64,000 nt of DNA. Origin: an uncultured bacterium (GTDB taxonomy: Bacteria > Omnitrophota > Omnitrophia > Omnitrophales > Aquincolibacteriaceae). The translations under genes were made by a program, and so were the position numbers. Positions 24,925 through 57,127 of the stretch are shown here, piece by piece. The notes beneath the pieces are model-generated. The model had not been told where the DNA came from and did not search any database. It worked only from the letters and a program-made list of their open reading frames with translations. Positions within the stretch are counted from its first letter, which is position 1, and each line of letters starts with the position of its first letter. The stretch covers positions 18,468-82,467 of the forward strand of contig CAZLTL010000002.1 of NCBI GenBank assembly GCA_964562525.1, given 5' to 3'.

Positions 24925-25272
24925 TTTTACTCCGCTTAGTCAAAAACACCCCTTACAAAAATTCAAACAGCCGAAACTGCGTTCGGAACTCATTTTTGAA
25001 AAGGGCTTTTTTAACAACGCTCCGCCGGAAGCTTCGCTCTGCGCCTTTGGCGCATCGCATGTCGGAATTTTGCTAGCCGCAAAATATCATTTTTGTACAA
25101 TTTCGCCCCTCCCCGCGCCGCGCAATCTTTTTTGCCCTGAGAGGAGCTCAGCCAAAAACGCATATTTCCCTTTTTATATTCTCTCGGACGAATATAATTC
25201 TCTCGTGGCACCTTATCACTTAAATTATTTTTGCTTCACTTTGTCGGGCAACGCGCCAGGCGCTTTGTTTTT

Positions 25273-39729: not shown

Positions 39730-40164
39730 TTAAACCATAGGCTTAAGGTTGCCAGGTTCTTTCTTACCACGCAAGGTGAGCATGCTAGCCCCCAACATTT
39801 TGCAAAGGCTATTGTTTTCTGAAATGAGATTTTCTATAGATTCAGGAGTTATTTTTTTTGAATCTCGCAGTAAACAAAGCCAGTATTCACTTTCATTAGC
39901 GGATTTCAAAGCGTATGAAAAAAAGTTAGCAAAATCTTTTCGAGAGCTACTGCCCTTTGCTTCAATGATATTAGCGCCAATCGAAGTTGCGGCACGCAAT
40001 AATTGCTTTGCGATAATTTGGGAAGCGAAATCATTTTTGAGCGCTTCCATAAGACGGATAACTCTAATTGAGAACGCATAGCTCTTTTCTTGTAATAAGG
40101 TTTTAGCTTTTGGGTTATGGTTTTGCCCCTTAACCTTTAAGCTTTGACTTGATTGTATTGCCAT
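39730..40164 (-). CDS. four-helix-bundle protein (TIGR02436 family)
   Basis: KSYAFSIRVIRLMEALKNDFASQIIAKQLLRAATSIGANIIEAKG...SEYWLCLLRDS is a typical family signature. The annotated start overlaps the stop of the convergent... strictly upstream-on-minus gene by 28 nt, so the true start is probably internal. Confidence 0.75.
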   Translation of the reverse strand: MAIQSSQSLKVKGQNHNPKAKTLLQEKSYAFSIRVIRLMEALKNDFASQIIAKQLLRAATSIGANIIEAKGSSSRKDFANFFSYALKSANESEYWLCLLRDSKKITPESIENLISENNSLCKMLGASMLTLRGKKEPGNLKPMV

Positions 40165-41798: not shown

Positions 41799-41968
41799 GA
41801 AATGTATGATAAATATAAATGTAAGTCAATTGAAAAATGATTATTTATTATATTTAAGGATTTTCATCTTGGCTGGGTTGAAATGGCAGGGTTTAGCAGG
41901 CACATTTCTAAGAACATTTACTAAGTTCAACTTCGGGCGTAAAGCAGTCTTCAAAGCAAGGATAGTTG

Positions 41969-44900
41969 ATGGGACGGCATCAGCAGTTCTTAAAATTCGT
42001 GGCCATTTTTGTCATCATGTGCCTTTTGGCGCAAGATGTGGCGATGGCGTTGCCATCAACGCAGCCCGAAGGCCGGAGGCCGGAGGCTAAAGGGGGGTCT
42101 TTCTCAGAGCTCCGGGTTCCGGGCTCCGGACTAAAAATTCATTCCAACTTAGGCAATGTCGACGAGTCTTTCGAAGGCACGAACGGTAAGCACATTACTT
42201 TCATTCTTGATGCACACGACTCCCTTGATGCGCAAAAGAATATCGTCCGAATCATTCAGCAGGCGACAAACTCCGGTATCAAAACCGTTTTTGAAGAAGG
42301 TTATGAAGGCGAGCTCAATACGGACGATTGGTTTGGAGCTATTGAAGATGACCAGATCCTCCGCAAAGTTTCCTACTATTATTTAGATCAGCTGAAAATC
42401 GGCGCCGCGGAGTTTGCGCATATTAACCGCCATAGGCGGTTAGGACGGAGGCCGGAGGCCACAGACCAGAGTTCGAATGCTTCTCAATCCTCCAGGCTTC
42501 GGGCTCCGGGCCCGCGAGTCGATTGGAAGCTGATCGGCGCGGATGATAAAGAAGCGTATCTCGAAAACGTGCGGGCTTTCGGTGATTCTGAAAAAGTTCG
42601 CGAGCAAATCTTACGCGACACACAAGCCATTCAGCGCGAACTGAAAGTCTTGGGCGATAAACAACTTTCACCTGAAGCTAAGAAATGGATTCTCGATTAC
42701 GAACGCTTTCATGATAACAGCCTTCCTTTGCTTGATTATTTAGGACGCTGGATCAAGCTTGCGCCTGAAAATGCTTGTCCGCTTTTGCGGCGCATTGTGG
42801 CGGCCGCGCAAGACCCTGAGATTGCACGTTCAATTCAAAAAACACGAGCCTCCGAAGTCTTAAGTGAAATTAAAACTTTCGAGGCAGCTGTTGAAAAACA
42901 TTTTTTTCCAAATAATCAAACGGCTGAAATTTGGCAGGCATGGAAAACCATGGCCGCAGTTGAAAAGCTTGCTGAGCTTAAAATCTCAAATCAAGATTTA
43001 AGTCACCTTAAAAACAATCTTAAAGCTCTCAAAACAGAAAATTTAGCGCGACAATTTGCCCGCGCGAAAAAGAATCCTGTTGTGATTTCAAAGCGCTGGG
43101 AAATGCTCATTCAAAACGCTTTGAGATTTTACGAGCTTGCACATAAGCGTGATGAAGCGGTGGAGCGAACTCTCAAAGAATGGGTCCGGAGGCCGGAGAC
43201 CGGAGACCCGATAAAAAAAACCAATCTCGCACCTCAAGCCTCCGGTCTCGGGCCTAGCAAGAACAGCTCAGCTGTTCTTGTTTTCGGTGGCTTTCATCGC
43301 GAAGGCATTACCGAAATTTTGCGGCGCAATGGATTTTCTTACACAGTTGTGATTCCAAAAATTATCGATTTTTCTAAGCGCCATCAAGCTCTTTACCGCG
43401 AAGCTATGAGTGTTGGGCCTAGGGGTTCAGGTTTCCGTCCCCAGGCGTCTGTTCAGGCGGCGCGGCCGCTTTCGAATTTTTATGACCCTGCATTTGGTTC
43501 GGAAATTAGAGCTGCTGAGGAAACAATCAAAGAAAACCCCGGGCGTGACTTGTCAGCCTCAGCCCTTTTGCTGCATGAAAAACTTTCAACAACCGCGGCG
43601 CATGGAATTGCTGGCGGGAATCTGAGCCGTCCCTCAGGTTCTCCCAACACGCGCCGCCTTTTAAATTCTGAAAAACTCCCAGGGTTGCGGGCCGCATCTC
43701 CGGGAGTTGGAACGGTTATGCCCCACGCCCGCTCCGAAAGCCGCGCTAAAAAAACAGTTGAGCAATTAGTTGATGAGGCAGAAAAGTTAATTCGAGACGA
43801 AACATCTATAAGAGGATGGTGGAAAGAAAACATTCAAAATGCGAATCAGAATCAAGCGGGCAAGGGGAGCCGCTCCACCAACTTCTCAATTGCATTTGGA
43901 GAAATCATTCCGAGGCCTTTACGTGAAGCGAAACAGTTGCTCGAGCGATTAAATGAAAGATTCTTAGCTGAACAAACGGAGGCTTACCCTACAAACGCCA
44001 TGAATAAACTCTTTTTTATTTTTTGCGGCACCTATGTAAGTCAGAAAAAAAATCTTTGGAATAAAGCTTTTAAACAGTTGCCCGAAGATAGCCAAAAGAT
44101 TTTTAATTCAGCTGCAAAGCAGCATGATGGTCTAAAAACGCTAAGCAATCTAAGCATGTATCGGGACTCTGTTTTCAAGGCAATGGCAGAAGAGAGAGAT
44201 TTTAAGCGAGCAGATGTGCTTGAGGCTATTAAGGCGAGACAAAAATTTGAACATGAAATAGATGCCCTGATTTGGTTTTCCCGCGTCATGAAGACGCCCG
44301 AAGCAGGCAAGGCTGATCCGCTAGATACTTTTTATCGAAATTATTCCAAACCGCTTGCGCGCGATGCAACCGCCACCGTTTATCATGAACTTGTCCGCCA
44401 AGTTCCGCGCGAGCAAATTACGCCCGAGTTTCGCAATGCCATGACCGCCTACCATGATCATCTGGTTGAATATCGTGACGCATTTATTTTTATTCTCTCC
44501 GAGATTGATAAACATATGCCTTTTCGCTCAGAATCGCGGCAAAACAAAAAAGCAAATAATGCTATTCCCAAAGAAGAAGAACAGAAGGCGCGACAATTGC
44601 AGAGCCGGCTGGAAGCGTATTTACCCCAATTAGAAAAGTGGAGCGGAGAGAAAAAATTATCTGTCCGGTCAGCTCAAGCGCAAAATAAAGCGGCGGTTGA
44701 AATGGCCGCGCTTTTGAATACTTACGTTGCTGACTATGTGAGCAAAAACAAACCCAATGAAAGCGTGAATGTTTTCCGCGACAGTCTCGGGAAATCTTTG
44801 CAGATTTGGGACATAGAGACGCATGTCTTTGTCGGCGGAGATAAAGACAAAAACTTGCCCGGTGACATTCGCGGCGATTTGGTGCGGGTGAGAGATTTTA

Positions 44901-47900
44901 TAAAAACCATGCGAGTGCATTTAGACGCAGACCGCTGGCAGACATTATCCGATTATTATGACGGAAATCGTCTTCATCTTGAAAAAATAGCTGGTCGATC
45001 GGAAGCGCGCGAGCCGGAAAAATTATCGATTCGTTCGATTTTTCATCCCAAGCATTTTTGGTACAGCACTGGACTTTTTGCTTTTTTTAAAATAGCGGAC
45101 TCTCTTTTTTTGAAGTGGCGGACGTTGACAATAGGCGAGCCCGATTATTGGAAGCCTCTCGATTGGATAACCAGCGTGACCTATCCGCTATCAATAGCAA
45201 ATATTGGTTTTTATTTTCTTTTTCTGTGGAGGTCTTCTTCTTGGAATGAAGCCGTCACGCAGAAAGTTGCGCACATTATTTTGACCGGAGTCCCGACGCT
45301 GTTTTTTGTCTTGGAATTCGTAGGCCCGTATATTTTTCCTTCGGGAATGACGGGGCATATTTTCGACCCCGACGATGCCGCCGCTGTTTTATTATCCGGG
45401 GTTATTCTGCGGCTACTGCATTCCACCAAGCTTCCTCCAGCAAAACGCTCAGAAGCGCGGGATTTAGCTGCGCCGGACAAGGAAGCGGTTCAACGTGTCT
45501 TTGATAAAGTCACGGAAGGCAACCCGCTTTCGGCGGAAGATTTAGAGATTGCTGTGCGGCAAGCGGTTGCTGAAAGCCGTGCGTGGTTAATTGGGCGGGT
45601 TAAAAATGCTATGAGCGCGGACGAGCTGAAAAAAATTCAGGAAGAGGCTGCCGCAAAAAAAACCGATGAAAACGAGATCATTCTTTCTGGAAAAAACTGC
45701 GCGGGGCAATGCGGGTATTCATCGGCGGATGTGATGAACCGGCTTTACTCGATTTTGGGCGATAAGGCGCTGATTCGCCGCATTCAAGCGCATGACGAGT
45801 TTGGTGTGAAGCAAAGGCAAAAGCATCTTTTTGTTTTAGCGGCATTGCCTGATCAGTCTAAAAGTTTTCTGATCGACCTAACTTTTACTCAATTTTTGAA
45901 TTCAGGCTGGCTGCCGCTTGATTTAATTGGCCGTGAATTAAAAAACCGTGATGGCAAGCGCGAAGCGCAGGGCCTCAGTTCGCTTTTGCTTCACGGGTAT
46001 GTTGATCTCAACCGTAACAAAGATTTTTTGACCGATTATGCCTACAGTTTTATTTCAGGTTCGGAAGATGATGACGCGCATTATCCCGCCCAATTCTTAC
46101 CCGCGGACTTGATAACTCTTGCGCCTAACGCTATTTCACGGCCCTTGTCTGATTTTTTAACGTTGGATGTGAACTCTGAAGCCGCTTTCGAAACCGCGCT
46201 TCAAGAGAGAGAGCTTAATTTTGATTTGCTGGCCCAAGAGCGCCGTGAGCGTTTGAAGGAAATGTTTTTAAAATATGCTGCGCGCTCTGAAGTGCGCGGG
46301 CTTTCTCAGGCTGAAGCAGAAAAAATTTCAAAGCTCCATGCAATTTATATGGATGTCATGCGGAATAAATCAGGCGCGTGGAAAGACGGGGCTGAAAAAG
46401 TAGAGTCTGCCGGATTTTTAGTCACAGGGGTTGGTTATTATCCGATTGATACGGACAATGAACTCGAACATTTGCTGGCAATTTTTCCAAAAATTCGCGA
46501 TAAGACAAATTCAAGTCAACCTCTTCGCTTTCTTGATTTAGGATCAGGCGCCGGCAAGCTTTTGGTACAAGCGTTGATGCTCGATAGCAATCTTAATGGC
46601 GTTGGCATTGAATATGATCAAGTGCTGCATGAAGCTTCTTTGGATCTCGCTGAGGAAGCCGCCAAGCAAAAACTCATTTCTCGTGAGAGGGCGCGTTTTT
46701 TGAAAGGGGATTTTTCTGCCCCTGAGTTTGAAAAAGAGATTTCTTCCGCGGATGTTCTTTTCCACTATCAGGCAAGCTCCTTTGATCCCGCGCCCCTTGA
46801 GCAAGCACTGATTCGTTCGATGCGGCCTGGCACCAAGCTTTTAGTGTATGGTTCATCCCGTGATTATTTTCGAAGGTTATCGGCAGACCTTGGCTTTGAA
46901 CGAGTGTTTGATGAGGCCGCGCGAGTGATAACTTACAAAAGAAACTTTATGCCGCGCGAGCCCATCTCTTATCAAGATACCGCCGTTGTTTTTGTGCACA
47001 CCGCGGGCATGGGCGATCATTCGCTGCCGTTGGCATTGGATAACCGCCGCGTGATTAAAGACGCAGTAAAAGCGATGCAGAATTTAGGCGGCAAGGAACT
47101 CGAATTTCATATTGATGGGCATCCGAGCTATTTACCGCCGCGACCCGACCGCATCCGTTCCAGACAAAAAAATACAGCCGCGCTGACTTCGCCCTTTAGT
47201 TACGATTTTGATCCTGTCCGCAAGGCGCAAAGGTTTGTTATGGCCGGCGGTGAGTGCGAGGCTTGCTTTCAAGCCGCGCTCACTTCACTGCTGGAAGAAG
47301 GCAATGAGGAAGCAACGCCGAAAGAAATTCACTTAGCCGCGGACGCTGTTTACCAAGTTGTTCCGGTCCTGAATGAAGATGACCCCCGCGGAGTGCATAA
47401 TGAATCTGCTCCGGTATCCGCGGAGCATCTTTTGAAAATGGTTGAGCAAACGGCAGCGCTAAAACAGCTGAGAAATTCCAGCGAAGTTACCCGTCCGCAA
47501 TATTTTTTAAACGGAAGCCCGGCGTCTTCAAAAACAAAAATTATTATTTGGAGCAATCATCGCGAAATGATTGATTGGATTCGCACGGATCAAAAAAGAT
47601 CTGAAGCGCGTGAAGCCGCAGCTATTCCCGTTAGGCCGGCGAATTTAACGGTTAAAAAATTTGACCGCGCACCGGCTGCGTTAAAGCACTGGGTTACCAA
47701 GGCGGAAGAAGAGCCTTGGGGTGTTTTGGAAGAAAACAGTCCGCCGTTTGTGTTGCAAGACGGTGTTTTGACATTGGCGCTTGGCGAGGATAACGCGAAA
47801 TATTTTTTCCGGCCTTTCCCAGAACGAACATTGGGCCTTGAAACGGTTCAAATCAATGAATCTTGGACGGAAGAGGGACAAATAAGATTTACAGTTGTCA

Positions 47901-50900
47901 AAAAACTTCCGGGCAATCGGCTGATTGTGAAAGGGTTTGTTGTCTCGAATGAATCAGAAGAAGTTTCCATCAGCGCTAAAACAAAAATCCGCGTCCGCAA
48001 AATTTTAGAGTTAAAAGAAAATATTGCCGGGCGCGTTGCCGGAGGAACGGTTTATCCGCAAAGCGTGATTGCTGCCGAGACGCCTAAAAGAAAAATACTC
48101 CCAACCTTTTTGCCCGTTGAAAAGGTTGTCGTTCCGACTGTCGAAATTGCCCAGGTGGCAAACATCCCTGAAAATAGCCCAGTGAAAATGGTAGCGAGGA
48201 AAAAATTAGCCGTCATTGCCGCGCTTCCGGCTGATTTTGATTGGGAAAAGCTCTCCGCACAGTTGCCCGCGTTTGAAAAGAATGAACTTCTCGGAGAAAC
48301 TACCGAGCGTGGGTATTTCAACTTACGCGTTGGCGAGAAAATGGTTTATGTCATGACGAATTTGGGGGTCAAAGACAAGCGCGAAGTTTTTGTTCGATCT
48401 GCCGAGGTTATCGGCAAGGGATATCGGTTAGTTTTAGGTTTTTCAGGCACGGATCAAACCACCACGCTGTGGATGGGCCATTTTCGCACGCGAGCTTTTG
48501 ATCAAGCCGCGAATTCAAAAACAGGCACCGAGATTTTTGAAATTTTAGATGAAGAGACTTGGACAGAAAAGTTTTTTGCGGAGCTTTTGCTTAAGCCGGA
48601 TGAGAAAAGCTGGGAAGAAATTCTAAAGCCTTTTGGAAATGAGATTGCGATGAATTTAGGCAAGGTTTATCAGAATGGTTTTCGCAAGGTTAAATTGGGA
48701 GATGATTTGTGGGCCGAAATCAGTGTTGCACCGCACAAATACGCAGGCTATTCGATACAAGTCGTGTCCGTTCGGCCGGAAGATGACTTGCTTCGGGTCG
48801 AGCTTTTTCTGACCAGCCCCGACGGTTTAACTAATGTGACATTGATTCGGTATGTATCCAGCGAAAAGGAGAAAGCTCAAAGCAAAGGCGCTGCTTTGGG
48901 AAAAGAAGTTTTTTACCGCCGGCTCTTGACCGAAGCCGATAGCATAGATTTAAGAGCCGGAAAAGAAATTGCCAGAAAAACAAAGCGCGAAGAGAATGCC
49001 GCCATTTTTCAAGCCCTCCCCGCTGATTTCATCGCGACCTTATCTCCGTTAGAGCAAAAAGTTGTCGCGCAGCTTGCTCAAAATCCGGAAATTTCAAATC
49101 AAGAAATTGCGAAGGCTTTGAATTCTTCTAAGCCGTCGGTGAGCAATGCGATTCAGAGGATTCGATTCAAAGCGAAAGTCAGAAATTTGATTCCGAAACT
49201 CGAAGAAAAAATCGGGCGTTCCGAAGCGCGGATTTTAGATTACGAAAAAGTCAGCGATATGGAGTTAACGGATTCAGTTCGGCAGGCTTGGTTCGCGAAG
49301 TACAAGCTAGGCATGGTTGAGCACGCGCTTGAAATTATTGATTTTTCAGGTAACACGCGTGACGCGCGCAAAGATGTCGGCACTCAAGCGTATGGCTTTT
49401 CATTGCCTGGCGATTCCAAGGGTGTTTTTGTCGCGTTTCCATTCGCGCAAATGGAAGGGGAGCGCGACAACGGTTATTTCGCTCTCTTTGATCAACAGGG
49501 CGAAATGGTGGGCGAAGGGCTTTATTCCGCGGCGGTTATTTCCGACAGTAAGCGGAAAATTCTAACTTTAAGGTTTCAGGTTTTACCCGAATATCGCAGT
49601 CAAGGTTATGGCCGAGTCATGACTGAAGCGATTCGTTATTTTGCGGATCAGCTTGATTCCGAAATGCAGCTTTTCTTTCATTTTAATTCGGACGAAGTCA
49701 ATAATCTTGCTTTGCGAAAATCGTTAACTGGGCTTGGGTTTCAGGAAATACCCCAAGTGTCGCATATGATGCAGCTTCCACGCTTGGCTTCTTCCCGTTC
49801 CGAAGCGCGCGGCACAGATAGCCAAGATCTCGATCGATTAGCGTATCTTTGGGGGCAGTATACGGAGGCGCTCAAAGAGAATCCCGTTCAGCGGTCTCAT
49901 GCGGGGACTGCTTTTTCAAGATGGCTTATGACGCAATCCGCGCTTGATTTGGGTGCCGGAGCGTATAGCTTTGTGGATACGTTGAAAAACTTAGGCAATC
50001 CTAATACCTACCGCATGGACACGAAACCTGTTCGGCACTCCGACTGGGGGACTTACGCAACACACTTGCAGCAGTCTTTTTACAATCCTTGGCCGCTTGG
50101 AGATGAGTCACTCAAAATTATTTATAGCCATTGGGCTTTAGGCGGAGAAGTTCCCGGGCTTTACCCAAGCGCTTGGGATATGCCGCTTGAAAAGAATCCG
50201 GATGCTACGTTTGCAAATGAACTGAAGCGCACGCTTCATCCCGATGGATTTGCTTATTTTGAATTAGGTTTTGAGCCCAACCCCGATCTGGTTCGCGCGT
50301 TGCGCCGTGCTGGCTTGCACGTTCAGTCGCCACCGGAGCACGCAGAAGATTTTGGAGAGCAATCTTTAGCGGTGATTGTGACGAAAAAACCATTTGCCGA
50401 TGTGATCAATCAAATTCAGGCTGAATTGGAAGCGAATAATCCGCGGCTTGCCGAAAATGTAAATCAAGAAGTCAGAGGAATGCGCTCCGAGGCGAGGCCA
50501 ACAGAAAATTTCAAACCGCAAGTGATTCAGCATCGTGCTAACACTCGGGATTTTATTGAGGCCGCTTATGAGGCCGGCGCGGATGGGTTTGAAATGGATA
50601 TTCAAATGACAAAAGACGGGGTCATGATTTTAAATCACGATCCATTTCAAATTGGCAATGCAGCCCACTTCTCCGTAGAGCTGAATTATTCAGAGCTTAA
50701 AGCAGCTAATCCCGAACTTTTGACTTTGAAGGATGCGTTAAATTTGCCGGTGTTGCGTCAAAAGACGGCTTATTTGCATGTTAATAATTTGGCGACCATG
50801 CCTTCTGTGCGCGAGAAACTGAAGCAAAAAGGCAAAGAGGCTCTTTTGGATAACTATGATGTTAGGGCCGTTTCTGCGATTCAAAAAGAAATTCAAAATT

Positions 50901-53900
50901 CAGCAGGACTATCGCGCCTTGTTTTTTCATCCTTTGATGTTAAGCAACTGTTGCTTCTAAGAAAAGAAGCCGTCTCAGCAAGGTTCATTTTGGATACGGA
51001 TTACGGTGCCAACGATCCTGAAATAAACCAGGTTTTGGATTTGGCAGCAGAATACAAGCTGACAGGTGTGGGGCTTCCTGGTGAAAGGATAACTGTCGAC
51101 TTGCTTCAAGATGTTAATGCTCGCGGCCTTCAGGCTGATTACGGCGCCTCTCCGGAGATTTTGCGGGCTTTGATGCCGCTTAAAACCGGAAACCTTGTTG
51201 TTGTTGATGATGTTGCCGCAACGAGAAAAATTTTGACGAGTGAAGAGGAAGAAAAAGCACACTCAAAAATGCGTGCGGTACGATTGAATGGTGAATTGAG
51301 GCCGACTCAAAGCTCATTCCTAGAACGGCATGATCCGCAGTGGAAAATTTTGCGCGAACAATATCTCGATGGAATATTGCAACGCGCAAAGCAAGATGCC
51401 GGTGACTCAAAAAATCCCGTCATAAAAGTGCTGGTTTTAGGCTCAAGCTCAGGCGAAGAACTTGTCCGAGCTTATTATGAAATCGTGACTTATTTGGAAA
51501 GCCGCGGCGAGAAACTTGCACGGACGGCTGCAGATGAAGGTTGGAAACTGCAAATTACCGGAATTGAGAAAGACGATGTTGTTGCCGAACGTGCACGCAA
51601 AAATTTGCAGGGCGAAACACCTTTCTTCGCTTATGACCTTGATGTTGAACCGAACCGAACTTATATCGAAGCTTTGCTTCAACGCGTCAGCCGCGATTCA
51701 GATTTGGTTGCGGAAGCGATTGAAGTGCGAACTCAAAACGCGGTGGAAGCTCTTAAAGAAACAGATTCCGCGCATTTGATTTTAGCCAACAATGTTTTTT
51801 ATTTACTCGGCAGCGTCTATCCACGCGAAGACCGCGCAGCGATTGAGCTGTTGTCGCGGCGATTCCGCAATTCTGTGATTGCGACAACCTACGATTGGAA
51901 TACCCAAATATACGCTTTAGGCGGCAAACCTGGCGAAAAAGAGTTGCCTTTTGTGCGTGCTGAAAGCAAAACTCTTGCAAAATACATTCCGGACGAGACG
52001 GCTTATTTGTTTTTTTCGCCCAATCCCGATTTTAATTTAGTGGCTTCTTTGCGCTCCGAAGCGCGCGGTTTTTTTACGAAAGCGTGGAATTTAGCTAGCA
52101 GCCGGGATGCGCGTTTGAAGGTTGCGCAGAACTGGCTTGAAAAAGGCCTTGTTGATCTCGAAGAGCGAAAGGAAATTACAAAAGACGAAGCGCAAAAACT
52201 TTTGTCCGCTGCCCGCGAGAATCGCGACGTGGGCGTATTGCTTGAAATTCTTGGCATTCACTTAATTTTGAAAGTGACGCCGCATCCCGGAGCTTTTGGT
52301 ACCACGGCCGCCATGACCGGGCTCGCGACGGGACAATGGTGGCTTGTCCCGCTTTACTTTTTAACGGGAATTTTCCGCGGCATAGCGACATTTGCTTTAA
52401 TTCGTAAAACAAAGCTCCCGCATAAATGGTTTTTAATTTTAGGCTCGGTCATTCCTGTCGCAGGAAATTTCTCAGTTCCGGCTTATATGCTTCGGCAGCC
52501 CGAATTACGGCAAACAGGGAAGGCAATGATGGCAGTGGCAAAACTGAGACTCAAACAAAAAGCGCGAATCATCCCGTCTCACGATAAACGGTCGGAAATG
52601 CGTGAATTCAAAGCGGAGTGGAATGAAGAGGCCCTGACTCAAATTGAAAAGGCAAACCCGGGGACGAGGGCGAAGATTCTTCAGGTTCTCGAAATACCGC
52701 TTAGTCAATTAGTGTTAGATCAGGATTATGATGATCAAGACGGCCGAAGCGTTTTAATTTATTTGGATGAGCCGGTTGATTTTGTTGATAAGCAAACCGG
52801 CTTGCGGGAAACAATACGCACGATCAAAGTCAAAGGCGCTGCTTTTGAAAACGAAGCCGTTTTACCGGATTTCAATCTTTTACGTTTAGATCCCGGTGTT
52901 GCGCCTGACCAGGCCGAAAATATTGGCAGGAAGCTCATGGAGCCCTCTTTTACAAAGGAAGGGCGCTTTTTGCTGACACCCAAACGACCGACGGCGGAAG
53001 GCGCGATGCGGCTTGATATGGCGCGGCAAGAGTACCAAATTTCACAGAAATCTTTTTATGCGGGTTTGCCCGTTCCTATCGCGCTGGGAATGGCTGAATT
53101 TCAAAATAAAAATTCGGACGGCACATCCGCGGCTGCGGTTATTTTGGGCGTGGCTTCAGCGCGTGATTTGCGCGTCACTAATTTAATCGGGTTTAAAACG
53201 CAGGCGTACTTACAATCTATTGCTCAGCCGATGGATTCCGCTGAGCGAGCCGCGCTTAAAGCTTTTTTTGAAGAAGATGTTGTGCGGCTTGCCGGAGCTC
53301 AGGGGCAGGCTCTGCGGGCTTTTAACGACCGCGGATTTATTCACCCGCAATTTCACTTGGGGAATGGCGGGGCTAACATTGATCTCGACGAAGGTCTCGC
53401 ATCGATTTATTTAATGGACCACGAAGGTTCGCTTGAAAGAAACAAGCTGACCGAGGCGCAGTTTTTAGGCTGGCTTGTTTTAGGTCTCAAACAAGCCGCA
53501 AAGCGCATACACGATTTAACCGATAAGCGTTATTACTCCGGCCCCAAGCTGAATTGGACATCCGCCTTTATTCGGGGATATTTTGGCCGCTATGCTGACA
53601 GACCTGAAATAAAAAAATATCTTTCACCGAAAAATTCCGCACTTTTTATCGAAGACTTACACGCTATTTTGTTTGACGCTGAAAAGCAGCCTGTTTTTGA
53701 AATCAATTCACCGCTTACGAGGCTTTTGGCTCAAATGTATGGGCTTAAAGAACTGCGGCGCTCTGAGGCGCGAAACGCATTAGAGATTTTTGATGAAGCG
53801 GCGGACAATTTACTGGCTTATCCCAAAGCGCTTCTTCATTCGCGCGGCTTAGAACCCTATTTGGACGCGTTCGACCGCGAGCATTATGTCTGGGATGAAG

Positions 53901-56900
53901 CCCAGCAGCATTGGGCGTCGAAAGATTTTCATCCCACAATCACGGGTGCGAAGCGGCTTACTTTGGGGTCTTGGGAAGATATTCAGCGTGCTTCACCCGA
54001 TGAACACGCGCGCATGAAGAATTTTGTAGCCATTCGTTTAAACACAACAGAAGGAGTGCGCAGCTTTTATGCTTTTGATGACCACGGCTGGTCGCTTCAG
54101 GCTTATGCCGAGGCGCATTGGCGCCGAGAAGTTCCGGCATTCGGCAACACGCAAATATTTATAGACAAGCACGGGGATGATCGAAAAGTGCATGGCGGAC
54201 AACACTACAAAGAAATGTTTCAAGCGATGCTTCGTCAGAGTCCGAGTGCGAACAATGACATTGATTTTGATATGGGCGGGTTTAATAACACGCTTTGGTT
54301 TTCGGGATTTATTCCGAAAGAAAATCATCATCGGTATCATGCGAACATGGGTTGGTTTCGAGAGATGTTGGCCGGCTTTCCAAGCAACCAAGCTGTTCTG
54401 CTTAATGTCGATACCGACGCGACGGAGTTTATTGTAGGCGAATGGAAGAACGAAACGCCGCTTGGCTTAGGCGAAGACGATTTTGAATCGCTTGCCATTG
54501 ATTTAACCAATTTGCGCGACAAATACAGCCTAACTCCGCTTACGGCGCATTTCACCACAACCCATTTTGAAAATGAAAATTTGGCGGATTTTTCTTTGCA
54601 TTCAAACCGCATTCAATATGGCGATACCGAACTTGCGCGTTTTCTTCCCCGTGTCGCGCCTTTTATTTATTTTGTAAAAGATCAGCCTGTTGAATTACGC
54701 GATCAGGCGATTGAGCAAGCGGCGCAAGAGCATGCCGCGCAATGGGAGCGGGATTTTGGCGCGAAATTTAACCGCTCCGAAATGCGCAAGCATGAAATTT
54801 CGGCGGAGCTCTTTTTTGTTCGCAGTTTTCAGGAAAAATGGGCGCGGCGGACTTTCATTGAACAGCATTGGCTTTTGCGCGCTATTGCGCGCGGACTTGA
54901 GCTTTCTTCTCAAGATGCTGCGTTTTGGGTTTTGGAATGGGATTTTGCCAAGTTCGCTGTTTTGAATCGGCTTGCGCAAAATTTAAAAAGGTTTAAAGGT
55001 TTAAAACAAGAAGATCTGGCGCGGGGGATGAGCTTTGAAACGCTTATCTTCGATGTGATGGAAGATATCCGTGATCCGGAGTATCGATTTGTTCGGAAGT
55101 TTTTAGGATGGGAAGAGCCCCCTGCTGATTTTTTTAGAATGGCGGATGAGGCTGTCAGCCGTGTTTCAGATTATGTTAAGTTGCTCGAGCCGGATCAAGC
55201 TCGCTATGGAGCTTGGGTAATTCGAAATGCCGCGCTTGATTATCAGTCTTACTTTGATTATTTGGTAAATGTCATCGGCCGCGATGATTTTTTTGAATTT
55301 GATAGTGAAGTTGAAAAAATAGAGCAAAAATTTATTTTGTCGCGCCGCTCCGAAATGCGGGCAGATTGGAATGATGAGATCGGACTTTGGAGTTCGCCGC
55401 AGGTAATTGAACGATTGAGTCAGTTTGTTCTTGATCCGCTCAGCGTTAGTTTATGGCGGCTTAAAGCAAGCGCTTGGCGCATTCCCGAAAGCGATGTCAA
55501 TTCGGTGCGGGATGAAGTTTTACGGCGATCGAAAGAATGGCCGCGGGCGGCGATATTTCAACGGGAAGATTTTTCGGCGCTTTCCTTTCTTCATCTTCCA
55601 TGGTCGTATCTCAAAGCCCGTTCTGCATTGATGGATGATCCGGATCGATTTGCTGTTTATTCGCTTTGGGAAGAATTAGAGAGCCTTTCGAAAAAAATTC
55701 GTGAATCCCGTATTTATACCTATGAAACCATTCGCACTGCCGCAAGATATTCGGGCATTTGGGGGCATGGAACAGCAAGCTCAGTTCTCCGCGAAGCTAG
55801 AAGTGATTATGAGCGCTGGCGGTTCAGAGCGGTTCACGACCATGATTTAGAAGATGAGTGGGCAATGCTCAATATCATGATTGAAGGTGAAATTAGCGCT
55901 GGAGAAGGAGCGCCTTTTGCCGGTATGGAATTGAGTGGAAATACGCCTGATTCATGGGGGCCGTTTTGGATTTTAACCCGCGGTTTTGAAAGTTTTTATC
56001 AATTTCATCCTTCAGGACGCGAAGATCATTGGGCTTATTTGGTTCCCAACCAAGCGGCGATCGACTTTTTTGAAAGAGGCCTTGAGCTTGCGGTAAGCAA
56101 AAAATTGATGACCGAAGAAGATCGACAGGATGTTTGCTCCAAGCTGGTGACTTACGATGAGTTTAACGCTTTAGAGGAACTGCTTTGGAATATTCGTGAT
56201 CAAAAAATAAGTATTAGCGAAGCGGTCGCGCAAGCCGGCGTTACGCGCTCTGTTCGCTCCGAAAGTCGTGCTAGCTCAAATGACACTGTCGATGAGGTTC
56301 AGCTTGCGAAAAATGAGGAGAGATATGCACAAATTATGAAGACCGCATTGAAGCGCGTGAAGCCCGGGCAAACGGGCGAGTTGGTTGAAATTGACAGCGG
56401 GCTTTCTGCAGAAGAAGATGCGCAGTTTGATCAAGAGCTGAAGCAACTTTCGGTTTATTTTGCTGAGGCGGGAGATTCAGCAAAAGCCGCCGTGATGTTT
56501 TGGTTGATTAAGAGCGACGAAATGGCTGCTGATCTTGCAAAGGATGTGATCTCTCTCAAAGGTTTGGGAGAAGATCGGCAGGTTATGATTCGTACCACGA
56601 GCCCCCCTTCGGCATTGCTCAGGGCAGGCGAGCTGCGGACCACGAATAGTCATAGTCAAGCGGTCAGCGGAACGAAGTCACGGATTTTAATCAGCCGCAC
56701 CGAGCTTGGCTCGATGAGCGAAGAAAATTTCAAAGCCTTCTATAAGTTTTTCTATCAAAACCAAGAGCTGGAGCTGTCCGTCTACGGTTCCGGCTCAAAA
56801 AATCCAGAAGAGGAAACGCGTGTCGGCTTGCTTGAGGCCGTCCCCTCGGCAAAAACCGGCCGCGTTTCTTTCTTCTTGGACCCCTCTTCTGCAGCGCAAG

Positions 56901-57127
56901 GAGGGGAAGCGATTGAGTTTTCTTCTGTTCCGGGCACAAAAACATTACGCGGCAAAAAGATTGCCGCAGCGGATATTCGTACAGTCGAAGGCATGGCATC
57001 CGGATTTTTAGCCGCCATGGGTATGGAATATACCGAAGACAAAGGCTTTGTCCGCGTGACGAGCGGGATCGAAATCAGCCGCTTCTTCGAGTTTCTCTCT
57101 TGGCAAGTATTCGCTGCTTCAGCGTAA
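41969..57127 (+). CDS. giant (5052 aa) multi-domain, multi-pass membrane protein. Order: signal peptide; TraB/GumN/Tiki-like domain; TM cluster; SAM-MTase; LuxR-type HTH; GNAT; GDPD; CheR-like MTase; TM cluster; long alpha-rich C-terminal region. 17 R-S-E-A-R-type motifs
   Basis: Single 15.2-kb open frame. TTG at 41966 or ATG at 41969 with AAGGA 7 nt upstream. Signal peptide MMGRHQQFLKFVAIFVIMCLLAQDVAMA. Domains read from sequence: ITFILDAHDS...VLVFGGFHREGITEILRRNGFSYTVV (TraB/GumN GAGHL-like); LDLGSGAGKL (class I MTase); LSPLEQKVVAQLAQNPEISNQEIAKALNSSKPSVSNAIQRI (LuxR/sigma-4 HTH); RSQGYGRVM (GNAT); HRANTRDFIEAAYEAGADGFEMDIQMTKDGVMILNHD (GDPD); VLVLGSSSGEE...HLILANNVFYLL (CheR-like). Hydrophobic helix clusters at ~45050-45420 and ~52250-52500. 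Confidence 0.9.
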   Translation: MGRHQQFLKFVAIFVIMCLLAQDVAMALPSTQPEGRRPEAKGGSFSELRVPGSGLKIHSNLGNVDESFEGTNGKHITFILDAHDSLDAQKNIVRIIQQATNSGIKTVFEEGYEGELNTDDWFGAIEDDQILRKVSYYYLDQLKIGAAEFAHINRHRRLGRRPEATDQSSNASQSSRLRAPGPRVDWKLIGADDKEAYLENVRAFGDSEKVREQILRDTQAIQRELKVLGDKQLSPEAKKWILDYERFHDNSLPLLDYLGRWIKLAPENACPLLRRIVAAAQDPEIARSIQKTRASEVLSEIKTFEAAVEKHFFPNNQTAEIWQAWKTMAAVEKLAELKISNQDLSHLKNNLKALKTENLARQFARAKKNPVVISKRWEMLIQNALRFYELAHKRDEAVERTLKEWVRRPETGDPIKKTNLAPQASGLGPSKNSSAVLVFGGFHREGITEILRRNGFSYTVVIPKIIDFSKRHQALYREAMSVGPRGSGFRPQASVQAARPLSNFYDPAFGSEIRAAEETIKENPGRDLSASALLLHEKLSTTAAHGIAGGNLSRPSGSPNTRRLLNSEKLPGLRAASPGVGTVMPHARSESRAKKTVEQLVDEAEKLIRDETSIRGWWKENIQNANQNQAGKGSRSTNFSIAFGEIIPRPLREAKQLLERLNERFLAEQTEAYPTNAMNKLFFIFCGTYVSQKKNLWNKAFKQLPEDSQKIFNSAAKQHDGLKTLSNLSMYRDSVFKAMAEERDFKRADVLEAIKARQKFEHEIDALIWFSRVMKTPEAGKADPLDTFYRNYSKPLARDATATVYHELVRQVPREQITPEFRNAMTAYHDHLVEYRDAFIFILSEIDKHMPFRSESRQNKKANNAIPKEEEQKARQLQSRLEAYLPQLEKWSGEKKLSVRSAQAQNKAAVEMAALLNTYVADYVSKNKPNESVNVFRDSLGKSLQIWDIETHVFVGGDKDKNLPGDIRGDLVRVRDFIKTMRVHLDADRWQTLSDYYDGNRLHLEKIAGRSEAREPEKLSIRSIFHPKHFWYSTGLFAFFKIADSLFLKWRTLTIGEPDYWKPLDWITSVTYPLSIANIGFYFLFLWRSSSWNEAVTQKVAHIILTGVPTLFFVLEFVGPYIFPSGMTGHIFDPDDAAAVLLSGVILRLLHSTKLPPAKRSEARDLAAPDKEAVQRVFDKVTEGNPLSAEDLEIAVRQAVAESRAWLIGRVKNAMSADELKKIQEEAAAKKTDENEIILSGKNCAGQCGYSSADVMNRLYSILGDKALIRRIQAHDEFGVKQRQKHLFVLAALPDQSKSFLIDLTFTQFLNSGWLPLDLIGRELKNRDGKREAQGLSSLLLHGYVDLNRNKDFLTDYAYSFISGSEDDDAHYPAQFLPADLITLAPNAISRPLSDFLTLDVNSEAAFETALQERELNFDLLAQERRERLKEMFLKYAARSEVRGLSQAEAEKISKLHAIYMDVMRNKSGAWKDGAEKVESAGFLVTGVGYYPIDTDNELEHLLAIFPKIRDKTNSSQPLRFLDLGSGAGKLLVQALMLDSNLNGVGIEYDQVLHEASLDLAEEAAKQKLISRERARFLKGDFSAPEFEKEISSADVLFHYQASSFDPAPLEQALIRSMRPGTKLLVYGSSRDYFRRLSADLGFERVFDEAARVITYKRNFMPREPISYQDTAVVFVHTAGMGDHSLPLALDNRRVIKDAVKAMQNLGGKELEFHIDGHPSYLPPRPDRIRSRQKNTAALTSPFSYDFDPVRKAQRFVMAGGECEACFQAALTSLLEEGNEEATPKEIHLAADAVYQVVPVLNEDDPRGVHNESAPVSAEHLLKMVEQTAALKQLRNSSEVTRPQYFLNGSPASSKTKIIIWSNHREMIDWIRTDQKRSEAREAAAIPVRPANLTVKKFDRAPAALKHWVTKAEEEPWGVLEENSPPFVLQDGVLTLALGEDNAKYFFRPFPERTLGLETVQINESWTEEGQIRFTVVKKLPGNRLIVKGFVVSNESEEVSISAKTKIRVRKILELKENIAGRVAGGTVYPQSVIAAETPKRKILPTFLPVEKVVVPTVEIAQVANIPENSPVKMVARKKLAVIAALPADFDWEKLSAQLPAFEKNELLGETTERGYFNLRVGEKMVYVMTNLGVKDKREVFVRSAEVIGKGYRLVLGFSGTDQTTTLWMGHFRTRAFDQAANSKTGTEIFEILDEETWTEKFFAELLLKPDEKSWEEILKPFGNEIAMNLGKVYQNGFRKVKLGDDLWAEISVAPHKYAGYSIQVVSVRPEDDLLRVELFLTSPDGLTNVTLIRYVSSEKEKAQSKGAALGKEVFYRRLLTEADSIDLRAGKEIARKTKREENAAIFQALPADFIATLSPLEQKVVAQLAQNPEISNQEIAKALNSSKPSVSNAIQRIRFKAKVRNLIPKLEEKIGRSEARILDYEKVSDMELTDSVRQAWFAKYKLGMVEHALEIIDFSGNTRDARKDVGTQAYGFSLPGDSKGVFVAFPFAQMEGERDNGYFALFDQQGEMVGEGLYSAAVISDSKRKILTLRFQVLPEYRSQGYGRVMTEAIRYFADQLDSEMQLFFHFNSDEVNNLALRKSLTGLGFQEIPQVSHMMQLPRLASSRSEARGTDSQDLDRLAYLWGQYTEALKENPVQRSHAGTAFSRWLMTQSALDLGAGAYSFVDTLKNLGNPNTYRMDTKPVRHSDWGTYATHLQQSFYNPWPLGDESLKIIYSHWALGGEVPGLYPSAWDMPLEKNPDATFANELKRTLHPDGFAYFELGFEPNPDLVRALRRAGLHVQSPPEHAEDFGEQSLAVIVTKKPFADVINQIQAELEANNPRLAENVNQEVRGMRSEARPTENFKPQVIQHRANTRDFIEAAYEAGADGFEMDIQMTKDGVMILNHDPFQIGNAAHFSVELNYSELKAANPELLTLKDALNLPVLRQKTAYLHVNNLATMPSVREKLKQKGKEALLDNYDVRAVSAIQKEIQNSAGLSRLVFSSFDVKQLLLLRKEAVSARFILDTDYGANDPEINQVLDLAAEYKLTGVGLPGERITVDLLQDVNARGLQADYGASPEILRALMPLKTGNLVVVDDVAATRKILTSEEEEKAHSKMRAVRLNGELRPTQSSFLERHDPQWKILREQYLDGILQRAKQDAGDSKNPVIKVLVLGSSSGEELVRAYYEIVTYLESRGEKLARTAADEGWKLQITGIEKDDVVAERARKNLQGETPFFAYDLDVEPNRTYIEALLQRVSRDSDLVAEAIEVRTQNAVEALKETDSAHLILANNVFYLLGSVYPREDRAAIELLSRRFRNSVIATTYDWNTQIYALGGKPGEKELPFVRAESKTLAKYIPDETAYLFFSPNPDFNLVASLRSEARGFFTKAWNLASSRDARLKVAQNWLEKGLVDLEERKEITKDEAQKLLSAARENRDVGVLLEILGIHLILKVTPHPGAFGTTAAMTGLATGQWWLVPLYFLTGIFRGIATFALIRKTKLPHKWFLILGSVIPVAGNFSVPAYMLRQPELRQTGKAMMAVAKLRLKQKARIIPSHDKRSEMREFKAEWNEEALTQIEKANPGTRAKILQVLEIPLSQLVLDQDYDDQDGRSVLIYLDEPVDFVDKQTGLRETIRTIKVKGAAFENEAVLPDFNLLRLDPGVAPDQAENIGRKLMEPSFTKEGRFLLTPKRPTAEGAMRLDMARQEYQISQKSFYAGLPVPIALGMAEFQNKNSDGTSAAAVILGVASARDLRVTNLIGFKTQAYLQSIAQPMDSAERAALKAFFEEDVVRLAGAQGQALRAFNDRGFIHPQFHLGNGGANIDLDEGLASIYLMDHEGSLERNKLTEAQFLGWLVLGLKQAAKRIHDLTDKRYYSGPKLNWTSAFIRGYFGRYADRPEIKKYLSPKNSALFIEDLHAILFDAEKQPVFEINSPLTRLLAQMYGLKELRRSEARNALEIFDEAADNLLAYPKALLHSRGLEPYLDAFDREHYVWDEAQQHWASKDFHPTITGAKRLTLGSWEDIQRASPDEHARMKNFVAIRLNTTEGVRSFYAFDDHGWSLQAYAEAHWRREVPAFGNTQIFIDKHGDDRKVHGGQHYKEMFQAMLRQSPSANNDIDFDMGGFNNTLWFSGFIPKENHHRYHANMGWFREMLAGFPSNQAVLLNVDTDATEFIVGEWKNETPLGLGEDDFESLAIDLTNLRDKYSLTPLTAHFTTTHFENENLADFSLHSNRIQYGDTELARFLPRVAPFIYFVKDQPVELRDQAIEQAAQEHAAQWERDFGAKFNRSEMRKHEISAELFFVRSFQEKWARRTFIEQHWLLRAIARGLELSSQDAAFWVLEWDFAKFAVLNRLAQNLKRFKGLKQEDLARGMSFETLIFDVMEDIRDPEYRFVRKFLGWEEPPADFFRMADEAVSRVSDYVKLLEPDQARYGAWVIRNAALDYQSYFDYLVNVIGRDDFFEFDSEVEKIEQKFILSRRSEMRADWNDEIGLWSSPQVIERLSQFVLDPLSVSLWRLKASAWRIPESDVNSVRDEVLRRSKEWPRAAIFQREDFSALSFLHLPWSYLKARSALMDDPDRFAVYSLWEELESLSKKIRESRIYTYETIRTAARYSGIWGHGTASSVLREARSDYERWRFRAVHDHDLEDEWAMLNIMIEGEISAGEGAPFAGMELSGNTPDSWGPFWILTRGFESFYQFHPSGREDHWAYLVPNQAAIDFFERGLELAVSKKLMTEEDRQDVCSKLVTYDEFNALEELLWNIRDQKISISEAVAQAGVTRSVRSESRASSNDTVDEVQLAKNEERYAQIMKTALKRVKPGQTGELVEIDSGLSAEEDAQFDQELKQLSVYFAEAGDSAKAAVMFWLIKSDEMAADLAKDVISLKGLGEDRQVMIRTTSPPSALLRAGELRTTNSHSQAVSGTKSRILISRTELGSMSEENFKAFYKFFYQNQELELSVYGSGSKNPEEETRVGLLEAVPSAKTGRVSFFLDPSSAAQGGEAIEFSSVPGTKTLRGKKIAAADIRTVEGMASGFLAAMGMEYTEDKGFVRVTSGIEISRFFEFLSWQVFAASA

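Follow-up and report, generated by a model that had tools for sequence, protein, structure and literature searches.

What does a 15.2-kb gene make when its single reading frame runs from a signal peptide through membrane helices, methyltransferases, a helix-turn-helix (HTH), and a phosphodiesterase? The gene lies in a 64,000-nucleotide stretch of DNA from an uncultured Omnitrophota bacterium (Aquincolibacteriaceae; GenBank assembly GCA_964562525.1, contig CAZLTL010000002.1, positions 18,468 to 82,467, forward strand), which was analyzed whole and is called the window here. An initial annotation, made from the letters and their open reading frames (ORFs), had taken it for an unusual domain combination in one membrane protein. 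Here, we report that the combination is no oddity of one protein, which is instead one member of a very large Omnitrophota family. Its architecture is almost certainly a chassis (signal peptide, TIKI-like head, and tail) carrying variable autonomous modules that are split by a strict, lineage-specific delimiter. Overall, we read the product as a cassette array resembling a polyprotein. Its delimiters would be recognized, and probably cleaved, by a cognate factor, possibly the protein's own N-terminal domain (NTD). We give this reading an even chance of being right.

One unbroken ORF covers 41966..57127 (+), with ATG 41969 as the likely start and TTG 41966 as the alternative. The 5,052-aa product is 100% identical to database protein P0001 (on a 181,577-bp NCBI contig), which is the lone member of its own 90% cluster; intact relatives are found in independent assemblies (P0002, 4,895 aa; P0003, 5,486 aa). 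Fifteen copies of R-S-E-x-R (x = A, M, S, or V), all in the coding frame, split the protein into 16 pieces, M1 to M16. Hydrophobic segments were located by a hydropathy scan, and helix number was judged by the positive-inside count. The features of the gene are as follows.

41969..57127 (+): giant gene, 5,052 codons plus stop; translation identical to P0001
41969..42049 (+): predicted Sec-type signal peptide, aa 1-27 (hydropathy; site read by rule)
42131..43483 (+): NTD, aa 55-505, TIKI/TraB/EreA/ChaN-type α/β core with a helical insert of ~215 aa
43730..43744 (+): delimiter 1, RSESR, closing the NTD module M1
43745..44524 (+): M2, 260 aa, no recognisable family
44525..44539 (+): delimiter 2, RSESR
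44540..44995 (+): M3, 152 aa, no assigned family; 82% identical end to end to a P0002 module
44996..45010 (+): delimiter 3, RSEAR
45011..45445 (+): M4, 145-aa membrane module (SIFHPxH…), 3-4 hydrophobic helices (hydropathy)
45446..45460 (+): delimiter 4, RSEAR
45461..46282 (+): M5, 274 aa, candidate Cys-His-Asp (papain/transglutaminase-like) hydrolase, QCG…KHL…IDLT (three-sequence alignment)
46283..46297 (+): delimiter 5, RSEVR
46298..47596 (+): M6, 433 aa, class I S-adenosylmethionine (SAM) methyltransferase (DOT1/Methyltransf_31-like) with a C-terminal extension
47597..47611 (+): delimiter 6, RSEAR
47612..49216 (+): M7, 535 aa, unassigned region, then a C-terminal HTH (aa 2358-2402)
49217..49231 (+): delimiter 7, RSEAR
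49232..49795 (+): M8, 188 aa, probable GNAT acetyltransferase; 95% identical end to end to a P0002 module
49796..49810 (+): delimiter 8, RSEAR
49811..50482 (+): M9, 224 aa, probable second SAM methyltransferase (LDLGAGAYSF), weak
50483..50497 (+): delimiter 9, RSEAR
50498..52051 (+): M10, 518 aa, GDPD (aa 2857-3055), then a CheR-like Rossmann domain (~aa 3120-3280)
52052..52066 (+): delimiter 10, RSEAR
52067..52588 (+): M11, 174-aa membrane module, 3-4 hydrophobic helices; 90% identical to a P0002 module
52589..52603 (+): delimiter 11, RSEMR
52604..53758 (+): M12, 385 aa, no assigned family
53759..53773 (+): delimiter 12, RSEAR
53774..54772 (+): M13, 333 aa, no assigned family; 86-88% identical end to end to P0002 and P0003 modules
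54773..54787 (+): delimiter 13, RSEMR
54788..55345 (+): M14, 186 aa, no assigned family
55346..55360 (+): delimiter 14, RSEMR
55361..56254 (+): M15, 298 aa, no assigned family; 89% identical end to end to a P0002 module
56255..56269 (+): delimiter 15, RSESR
56270..57124 (+): M16, including the family C-terminal domain (CTD; α/β) and ending …VFAASA-COOH

R-S-E-x-R stands at 15/15 junctions of P0001, with 0 copies in the other reading frames over 41966-57127 and 6 over the whole 64-kb window. A search with 4,992 residues of the giant returned 85 proteins (2.7-7.8 thousand aa; all named ones Omnitrophota), each sharing only ~9% of the query, namely the NTD. These 85 relatives contain 768 copies of R-[S/A]-E-x-R against 22.6 expected from composition, and control motifs in which K replaces R, or D replaces E, turn up 6-12 times. 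Delimiter density is 2.1 per 1,000 aa in the giants versus 0.22 in neighbouring ORFs of the same genomes, and the family-wide median length of the pieces is 326 aa. Residues flanking the delimiters are not conserved. Arg, Ser, and Ala codons differ among the 15 sites, so the constraint acts on the peptide, and a DNA- or RNA-level signal at the junctions was rejected on the same ground. Delimiters interrupt none of the 16 Pfam envelopes checked in four proteins; GDPD begins 6 and 13 residues past a delimiter in two unrelated family members, and a B12-binding and radical-SAM pair (a natural two-domain enzyme) is kept within one module.

Lineages vary in the preferred x and in the use of S or A at the second position, and divergent branches with the invariant NTD residues use other uniform delimiters, as follows.

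R[PL]EAR, 10 copies, in P0069
xGFG[AV], 14 copies, in P0060 (also in L074)
G[AS]SLG, 7 copies, in P0083
PG[RK]MAV, 4 copies, in P0085

The first delimiter falls just past the NTD in P0001 and in these four alternative-delimiter proteins. Ser-dependent autoproteolysis or a phospho-Ser site is unlikely, as whole lineages use R-A-E-x-R or R-P-E-A-R. A full-text literature search for the pentapeptide strings gave spurious matches only. The Ser codon of all 15 delimiters is TCN and never AGY, on a gene background of 70% TCN; a single step leads from TCN to GCN (Ala) or CCN (Pro), the variants of other lineages.

Delimiters are also where relatives exchange material. Seven modules (M3, M5, M8, M11, M13, M15, and M16) recur in P0002 and/or P0003 at 72-95% identity, from delimiter to delimiter, and their order differs: M5 precedes M6 here and follows M13 in P0003. 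At the syntenic locus of another metagenome-assembled genome (MAG), which carries DUF4301, PGM, ABC-2, CorA, RlmN, IVP protein, a secreted ~540-aa protein, the giant, and YchF, the orthologue P0004 has nothing in common with P0001 beyond the NTD, part of M7, and the CTD. The plan is reduced to its minimum in an 805-aa family member that consists of signal peptide, NTD, delimiter, one module, and CTD. By these comparisons, the modules act as independent evolutionary units that are swapped, reordered, and replaced exactly at the delimiters. The idea of a fused operon-like assembly, raised at first annotation, holds as far as an array of autonomous, delimiter-bounded, recurring modules is concerned; internal operon signals are not enriched in the giant, with 17 promoter-like sites versus 17.8 expected and 35 terminator-like sites versus 27±4.

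Among the 14 unrelated cargo modules are a pair of membrane modules and two to three SAM methyltransferases, together with a GDPD, an HTH, a probable GNAT, and a candidate Cys-His-Asp hydrolase; several others are unassigned. The motifs from which domains were first called all lie where they had been placed: LDLGSGAGKL at 46532-46561, the HTH at 49040-49174, RSQGYGRVM at 49595-49621, the GDPD HR…E.D at 50528-50608, VLVLGSSSGEE at 51428-51460, and HLILANNVFYLL at 51773-51808. Hydropathy likewise bears out the two hydrophobic clusters and the N-terminal signal peptide, which has a positive n-region, a hydrophobic core (aa 10-21), and a site between A-M-A and L-P. Profile searches sort the domain calls by strength. 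GDPD is strong (PF03009, E = 3.7e-15; the match spans positions 10-214 of the 244-position profile and takes in the catalytic HR…E.D), and six solved GDPDs match M10 (best E = 1.4e-6; PDB 1v8e among them). The M6 methyltransferase is marginal overall (DOT1, 25.8 bits versus a cutoff of 23; Methyltransf_31, E = 1.3e-5; a weak PDB match to DOT1L). An HTH at the end of M7 is supported by HTH_24 (23.4 bits versus a cutoff of 21.9), as a predicted domain; its assignment to the LuxR subclass is not established, since GerE/LuxR scores 16.2 bits, below its cutoff of 23.5, beside sigma70-ECF (E = 1.6e-4) and weaker MarR and sigma-70 region 4 matches. Two further calls are sub-threshold: GNAT in M8 (Acetyltransf_7, E = 2.5e-3, 18.6 bits versus a cutoff of 27; RSQGYG motif present) and CheR (PF01739) as the sole match of the C-terminal half of M10 (E = 0.044, 13.7 bits versus a cutoff of 27, positions 7-147/195).

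Two modules had been missed by the initial annotation, the probable methyltransferase M9 (Methyltransf_11, E = 0.17, profile positions 1-94 of 95) and the Cys-His-Asp candidate M5. The order and spacing of Cys, His, and Asp in M5 resemble those of papain- or transglutaminase-like hydrolases, with no profile support. QCG(Y/F)SS … QKHL … FLIDLTF is conserved in three proteins. M5 was rejected as the processing protease of the family, being present in only 3/85 proteins.

The head is the constant part of the family. An AlphaFold model of the NTD (predicted local distance difference test, pLDDT, 82; predicted template modelling score, pTM, 0.76) has an α/β core interrupted by a ~215-aa helical insert; this predicted fold, with its parallel β-sheet core, is typical of the TIKI/TraB/EreA/ChaN superfamily. 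Comparison values for the model were 8.8 for TraB, 8.3 for EreC, 8.3 and 7.9 for two BcR135/136-type proteins, 8.0 for RRSP (a MARTX effector), 7.9 for ChaN, and 7.5 for HopBA1. Foldseek against the PDB returned nothing significant (HopBA1 ranked second and BcR135 third), and a sequence-profile search against the PDB returned nothing relevant. Residues 55-505 were aligned with 16 relatives and the window's own paralogue (described below). The NTD of P0001 matches none of PF01963 (TraB_PrgY_GumN), PF05139, and PF04187 at E <= 0.1, the N-terminal region has no NCBIfam match either, and PF04187 matches one of 18 relatives (E = 0.052).

Nine NTD residues are 100% invariant in 166 representatives (<=50% identity): D81, H83, Q89, E110, E148, R394, G440, G441, and H443, of which the last three belong to a GGFH motif (G440-G441-F442-H443). 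The spacing from H83 to E110 is 27 residues; RRSP and Bcr135 have a 2His/2Glu catalytic set with a His-to-Glu spacing of 28 (PMC6254334). As a putative active site, the D-x-H … E … GGFH pattern matches the TIKI-family 2His/2Glu set, with Asp rather than Glu as the first acid. TIKI-family hydrolases include the endopeptidases Tiki and RRSP. The Tiki/TraB label first given to this region is accordingly supported by fold and active-site pattern and not by profile membership, there being no Pfam, NCBIfam, or PDB sequence match.

Three in-frame palindromic inserts of ~70 nt, built of GGCCGGA heptads, lie in or beside the NTD coding sequence.

42063..42131 (+): insert 1, GGCCGGA heptads, encoding RRPEAKGG…LRVPGSG
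42441..42509 (+): insert 2, in a low-pLDDT loop of the NTD model
43184..43256 (+): insert 3, in a low-pLDDT loop; hairpin of -34.6 kcal/mol (z = -3.0)

Heptad matches number 14 versus 0.6 expected, and 13 of the 14 are within the three inserts; the remaining one, with 3 mismatches, is at 59910-59925. The inserts encode low-complexity loops of the RRPEA…LRxPG type; in relatives, these loops are occupied by different low-complexity inserts. The three elements resemble small repeats that form hairpins and are tolerated in surface loops.

At the other end, the family CTD is an α/β domain of ~150-170 aa that ends in [A/S]-A-COOH. This ending, behind a hydrophobic helix, is found in ~80/85 family members, and the terminal Ala is invariant in the alignment; the giant itself ends in VFAASA (57107-57124). 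The [A/S]-A tail is reminiscent of ssrA-like tags, of tails recognized by C-terminal proteases, or of an export signal.

The family is a very large, Omnitrophota-restricted set of chassis-plus-cargo giants, mostly of 0.8-8 thousand aa. Pfam content of the 85 relatives is very diverse (epimerases, radical SAM, kinases, NUDIX, HAD, and glycosyltransferases). An NTD profile retrieved 8,907 cluster representatives (50% identity), 4,915 of them at E <= 1e-30, and the NTD is at or near the N terminus among the 150 matches listed. It is encoded at 170 loci in GTDB species genomes; among the 80 loci listed, many are titled only "uncultured bacterium," and those named to a taxon are all Omnitrophota but one ("uncultured Planctomycetales bacterium"). 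Some MAGs hold up to five paralogues. Across the 79 loci with an identified giant ORF, no conserved neighbour gene was found as a partner or protease; the largest neighbour cluster covers 7/79 loci, which are the syntenic orthologous ones. The window itself contains a second copy, separated from the first by YchF.

58470..64000 (+): paralogue, truncated where the window stops, at least 1,843 aa, with signal peptide and NTD (DAH, GGFH)

Its NTD is 23% identical to that of the first giant, and its delimiters RSEFR (60405) and RSEMR (60708) flank a module with a single transmembrane (TM) helix. The cargo after RSEMR (at least 1,090 aa) has no Pfam match or further delimiter.

Four known systems bear comparison with this plan. 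MARTX toxins are likewise large proteins with a mosaic array of exchangeable, unrelated modules, which an internal protease frees at inter-domain sites, and their effector RRSP shares the TIKI fold with the NTD. MARTX junctions are Leu-X sites, whereas a strict five-residue motif is used here. The giant also differs in having no RTX/glycine-rich repeats or C80 cysteine protease domain (Pfam), an N-terminal Sec signal instead of a C-terminal type I signal, and cargo of metabolic or regulatory, not cytotoxic, appearance. Viral polyproteins (picornavirus 3C, potyvirus NIa, flavivirus NS3) combine a uniform, lineage-specific junction motif with a protease in the same chain; the arrays here, by contrast, are cellular, chromosomal, paralogous by the dozen per phylum, and freely shuffled, and their cleavage is inferred. 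The TIKI/TraB/PrgY/GumN/ChaN/erythromycin-esterase superfamily shares with the NTD the α/β parallel sheet and D81-x-H83, E110, and H443, at a spacing of 27 versus 28; PrgY is extracytoplasmic, as the NTD is predicted to be. The NTD departs from that superfamily in its ~215-aa insert, its first acid (Asp, not Glu), its extra invariant residues (Q89, E148, R154, and R394), its lack of profile membership, and its fusion to kilobases of cargo. Polymorphic toxins (Rhs, CdiA, MafB-type) have a constant trafficking chassis, exchanged modules, and often embedded releasing peptidases, but carry one C-terminal toxin, whereas many modules are present here with no adjacent immunity genes and no recognisable toxins.

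Closest in phylum are the giant Omnitrophota ORFs (Seymour et al. 2023, PMC10066038), the "Archaeovorins" (West-Roberts et al. 2023, bioRxiv 10.1101/2023.11.21.568195), and the "multi-enzyme metabolic clusters" with methyltransferase, GNAT, and HAD modules, 94% of which have a signal peptide or TM helix (Nielsen & Lui 2026, bioRxiv 10.64898/2026.06.07.730766). Like our gene, these are single ORFs that tile many unrelated enzyme families (methyltransferase, GNAT, HAD, NUDIX, radical SAM, kinases, and glycosyltransferases). They also have TM helices and a signal peptide, with a peptidase-type domain close to it, and their cleavage into several products has been suspected. They are larger (>=10,000 to 147,000 aa, or ORF > 20 kb) than the 5,052 aa and 15.2 kb found here, which fall outside that size class. 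Their N-terminal peptidases are C39 or S8 rather than a TIKI-fold domain, and they lie between an upstream type II/IV secretion-like locus and downstream PilZ genes rather than among housekeeping genes near oriC. The Archaeovorin paper states that unknown cleavage points blocked structure prediction and functional dissection (10.1101/2023.11.21.568195). Neither preprint's text contains a junction motif, linker, polyprotein, or cleavage points, and the 2026 preprint does not contain the word motif. The odd domain mixture is thus known from Omnitrophota giants, and the delimiter, head, and tail were not found described in the literature; the proteins of the present subfamily are shorter and far more abundant, and they are set apart by another type of head, a defined tail, and an explicit delimiter.

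What, then, does the delimiter do? It is probably the recognition site of a co-evolving factor. That it is a cleavage site has, in our view, slightly less than an even chance; if so, the chain would be cut at R-[S/A]-E-x-R to free individual enzymes and membrane segments, in the manner of a viral polyprotein or MARTX toxin. Cleavage is the most economical explanation because the pattern is that of viral polyproteins and MARTX toxins, because the modules need no fixed order, because a hinge needs neither five fixed residues nor a swap for a different uniform motif, and because work on the larger Omnitrophota giants suspected N-terminal C39/S8 processing, without cleavage points. The best candidate protease would be the protein's own N-terminal TIKI-like domain, since it is universal, its catalytic residues are invariant, and the TIKI family includes site-specific endopeptidases; we propose this role for the head only tentatively.

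Several points weigh against cleavage by the head. The case for cutting at delimiters is built on sequence patterns, and a binding or docking role of the motif would yield the same statistics. The TIKI superfamily includes esterases and non-enzymes, so the fold does not imply a peptidase. Some R-S-E-x-R copies lie inside the CTD and seem structural, not functional. The signal peptide puts the NTD outside the cytoplasm, yet the cargo behind it consists of SAM-, acetyl-CoA-, and ATP-type enzymes plus an HTH. The single TM helix of the paralogue follows the first delimiter and has acidic-outside/basic-inside flanks; its later delimiters would therefore be on the opposite side of the membrane from the NTD. 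One MAG (L028, L043, L061, L070, and L071) uses RSELR at 20/21 sites over five loci, and such uniformity over five paralogues fits a genome-wide factor acting in trans as well as an NTD acting in cis; the paralogues of another MAG (L003 and L080) differ, with RSE[AM]R versus RSEQR. Two ways out are export of the entire chain, in keeping with a host-directed multi-effector reading and with the host-dependent lifestyle inferred for Omnitrophota, and a second, cytoplasmic factor; the motif may also stay uncleaved.

An uncleaved, membrane-tethered multi-enzyme scaffold is the counterpart of that last possibility. The motifs would be hinge or docking elements (e.g., for β-strand addition to a partner) that arrange the modules at the membrane, and the NTD would be an extracytoplasmic hydrolase or sensor with a separate substrate. 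With R/E/R on one face and S/hydrophobic on the other, the motif would suit an extended docking strand. The protein has a signal peptide and TM modules, and the NTD and cargo of the paralogue seem to lie on opposite sides of one TM helix; published views also favor membrane-anchored surface or coat proteins (PMC10066038; 10.64898/2026.06.07.730766). A scaffold is nevertheless doubtful on balance. Between close relatives, and at the orthologous locus, modules change order freely and whole sets of cargo are replaced, which argues against an ordered assembly line; a hinge would require neither strict identity over five residues nor replacement by another uniform motif; and an HTH and small-molecule enzymes sit in a 5,000-aa chain with no obvious joint pathway.

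A rather unlikely alternative is a secreted, MARTX-like polyprotein that carries multiple effectors for a host or prey cell, exported by Sec, with modules released at delimiters and acting in the cytoplasm of the other cell; at the same low likelihood, the TM modules and chassis would help the chain to reach or cross the target membrane. This would explain cofactor-dependent "cytoplasmic" enzymes behind a signal peptide, including those of relatives with no internal hydrophobic segment (the architecture of P0031). Fast cargo turnover and shuffling are typical of conflict systems, many paralogues occur per small genome, RRSP (a structural match) is a MARTX effector, and Omnitrophota have been inferred or shown to be host dependent or predatory, with giant-ORF peptides rising in attached cells (PMC10066038). 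Set against this, no delivery apparatus is encoded nearby, where housekeeping genes near oriC are found, and no neighbour is conserved over 79 loci; the cargo of relatives is mostly ordinary sugar- and nucleotide-metabolism enzymes and not recognisable toxins; RTX repeats and a C80 domain are absent (Pfam); and the scenario is entirely inferential. The broader proposition that Omnitrophota encode thousands of exported polyproteins, cut at a strict, lineage-specific pentapeptide by their own TIKI-family endopeptidase into a varying set of enzymes, membrane segments, and DNA-binding proteins for combinatorial delivery to a host or prey cell, is speculative, and we lean against it.

The initial annotation had suggested that individual modules end up in different compartments and had called an HTH within such a protein topologically odd. 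Hydrophobic clusters span aa 1030-1151 (nt 45056-45421) and aa 3421-3508 (nt 52229-52492), beside the N-terminal segment at aa 10-28. If each cluster changed the side of the chain, N-terminal modules would be periplasmic, the middle block (methyltransferases, HTH, GNAT, and GDPD) cytoplasmic, and the C-terminal block periplasmic; the two clusters bracket exactly the block of SAM/acetyl-CoA enzymes and HTH, and with three helices in M4, the positive C-terminal flank would place that block in the cytoplasm. We consider such alternation distinctly unlikely. M4 equivalents in P0004 and P0006 show four hydrophobic segments, and the K/R count favors four helices (13 inside versus 2 outside) over three (8 versus 8); four helices suggest no net change of side across M4. 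Hydropathy gives three or four helices for M11, and a crude hydropathy scan of TM-helix parity per module was too noisy to use. Relatives with similar enzymes lack any TM helix: 15 of the 85 have no internal hydrophobic segment, and therefore all their modules would share the compartment of the head. Placement of modules in different compartments is thus not established, and by the same helix count and the same 15 relatives, the HTH is not demonstrably on a "wrong" side.

Finally, an artefact (chimeric MAG assembly, or decayed genes that stay open) is extremely improbable even though the sequence is from a MAG and the protein is alone in its 90% cluster, as a 15.2-kb open frame is beyond chance, head, tail, and delimiters are shared by intact relatives of comparable length from independent assemblies, synteny is kept in another MAG, and the family has thousands of members.

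The function of giant multi-enzyme ORFs, a hallmark of Omnitrophota, is an acknowledged open problem. The delimiter, whose enrichment is statistically overwhelming, provides the first concrete candidate cut sites and parses the giants into protein-sized units, and the family adds a candidate cognate hydrolase with an invariant active-site set and clear evidence of cassette-wise shuffling of these units. Whether giants are polyproteins becomes directly testable, and thousands of unannotated giants can be split by rule for structure prediction. Cleavage, if it occurs, would provide a rare example of a cellular organism that expresses polyproteins systematically and might offer an orthogonal pair of site-specific protease and site. 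Exported arrays cut by their own TIKI domain would, if real, parallel viral polyprotein expression in a cellular setting, with a built-in, co-evolving protease/site pair.

The window covers the chromosomal origin region, with a cumulative GC-skew minimum at ~10-12 kb. Window positions 1-21600 encode a GH94 phosphorylase, a solute-binding protein, parB, parA, gidA, yidC, and rnpA on the minus strand and dnaA, dnaN, gyrB, gyrA, and serS on the plus strand. The giant gene is ~30 kb from this region, co-oriented with dnaA-gyrA (+) amid housekeeping genes, and is outside any obvious mobile element. Upstream are genes for DUF4301, PGM, an ABC-2 transporter, CorA, RlmN, and an IVP protein, and downstream is YchF, which clusters with Omnitrophota proteins at >=90% identity, and then the second giant gene. 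Two genes stand next to the giant on the opposite strand.

39730-40164 (-): "23S rRNA intervening-sequence protein" gene, following the 553-aa gene
40137-41798 (-): 553-aa secreted protein gene, W-rich repeats, possibly a β-propeller, no Pfam match; upstream of the giant and divergent from it

The 553-aa gene is kept next to the giant at 7 syntenic loci, some of them distant (33-37% head identity). Two 553-aa ORFs in the window (9653-11314 and 40137-41798) were rejected as paralogues of each other, one being YidC. An Rfam scan of the whole window found four tRNAs only, and the ORF-poor stretch beyond 58.4 kb was rejected as rRNA, being the second giant ORF. A 2,195-aa coiled-coil ORF (25231-31818, +) has a weak TBP-TOTE match as its sole match (E = 4e-5, below cutoff) and carries the sole two chance R-S-E-x-R matches seen among the window's other ORFs of >=200 aa; it is rich in E/K/A/Q, with long internal repeats and a very strong AT skew of 0.36-0.39.

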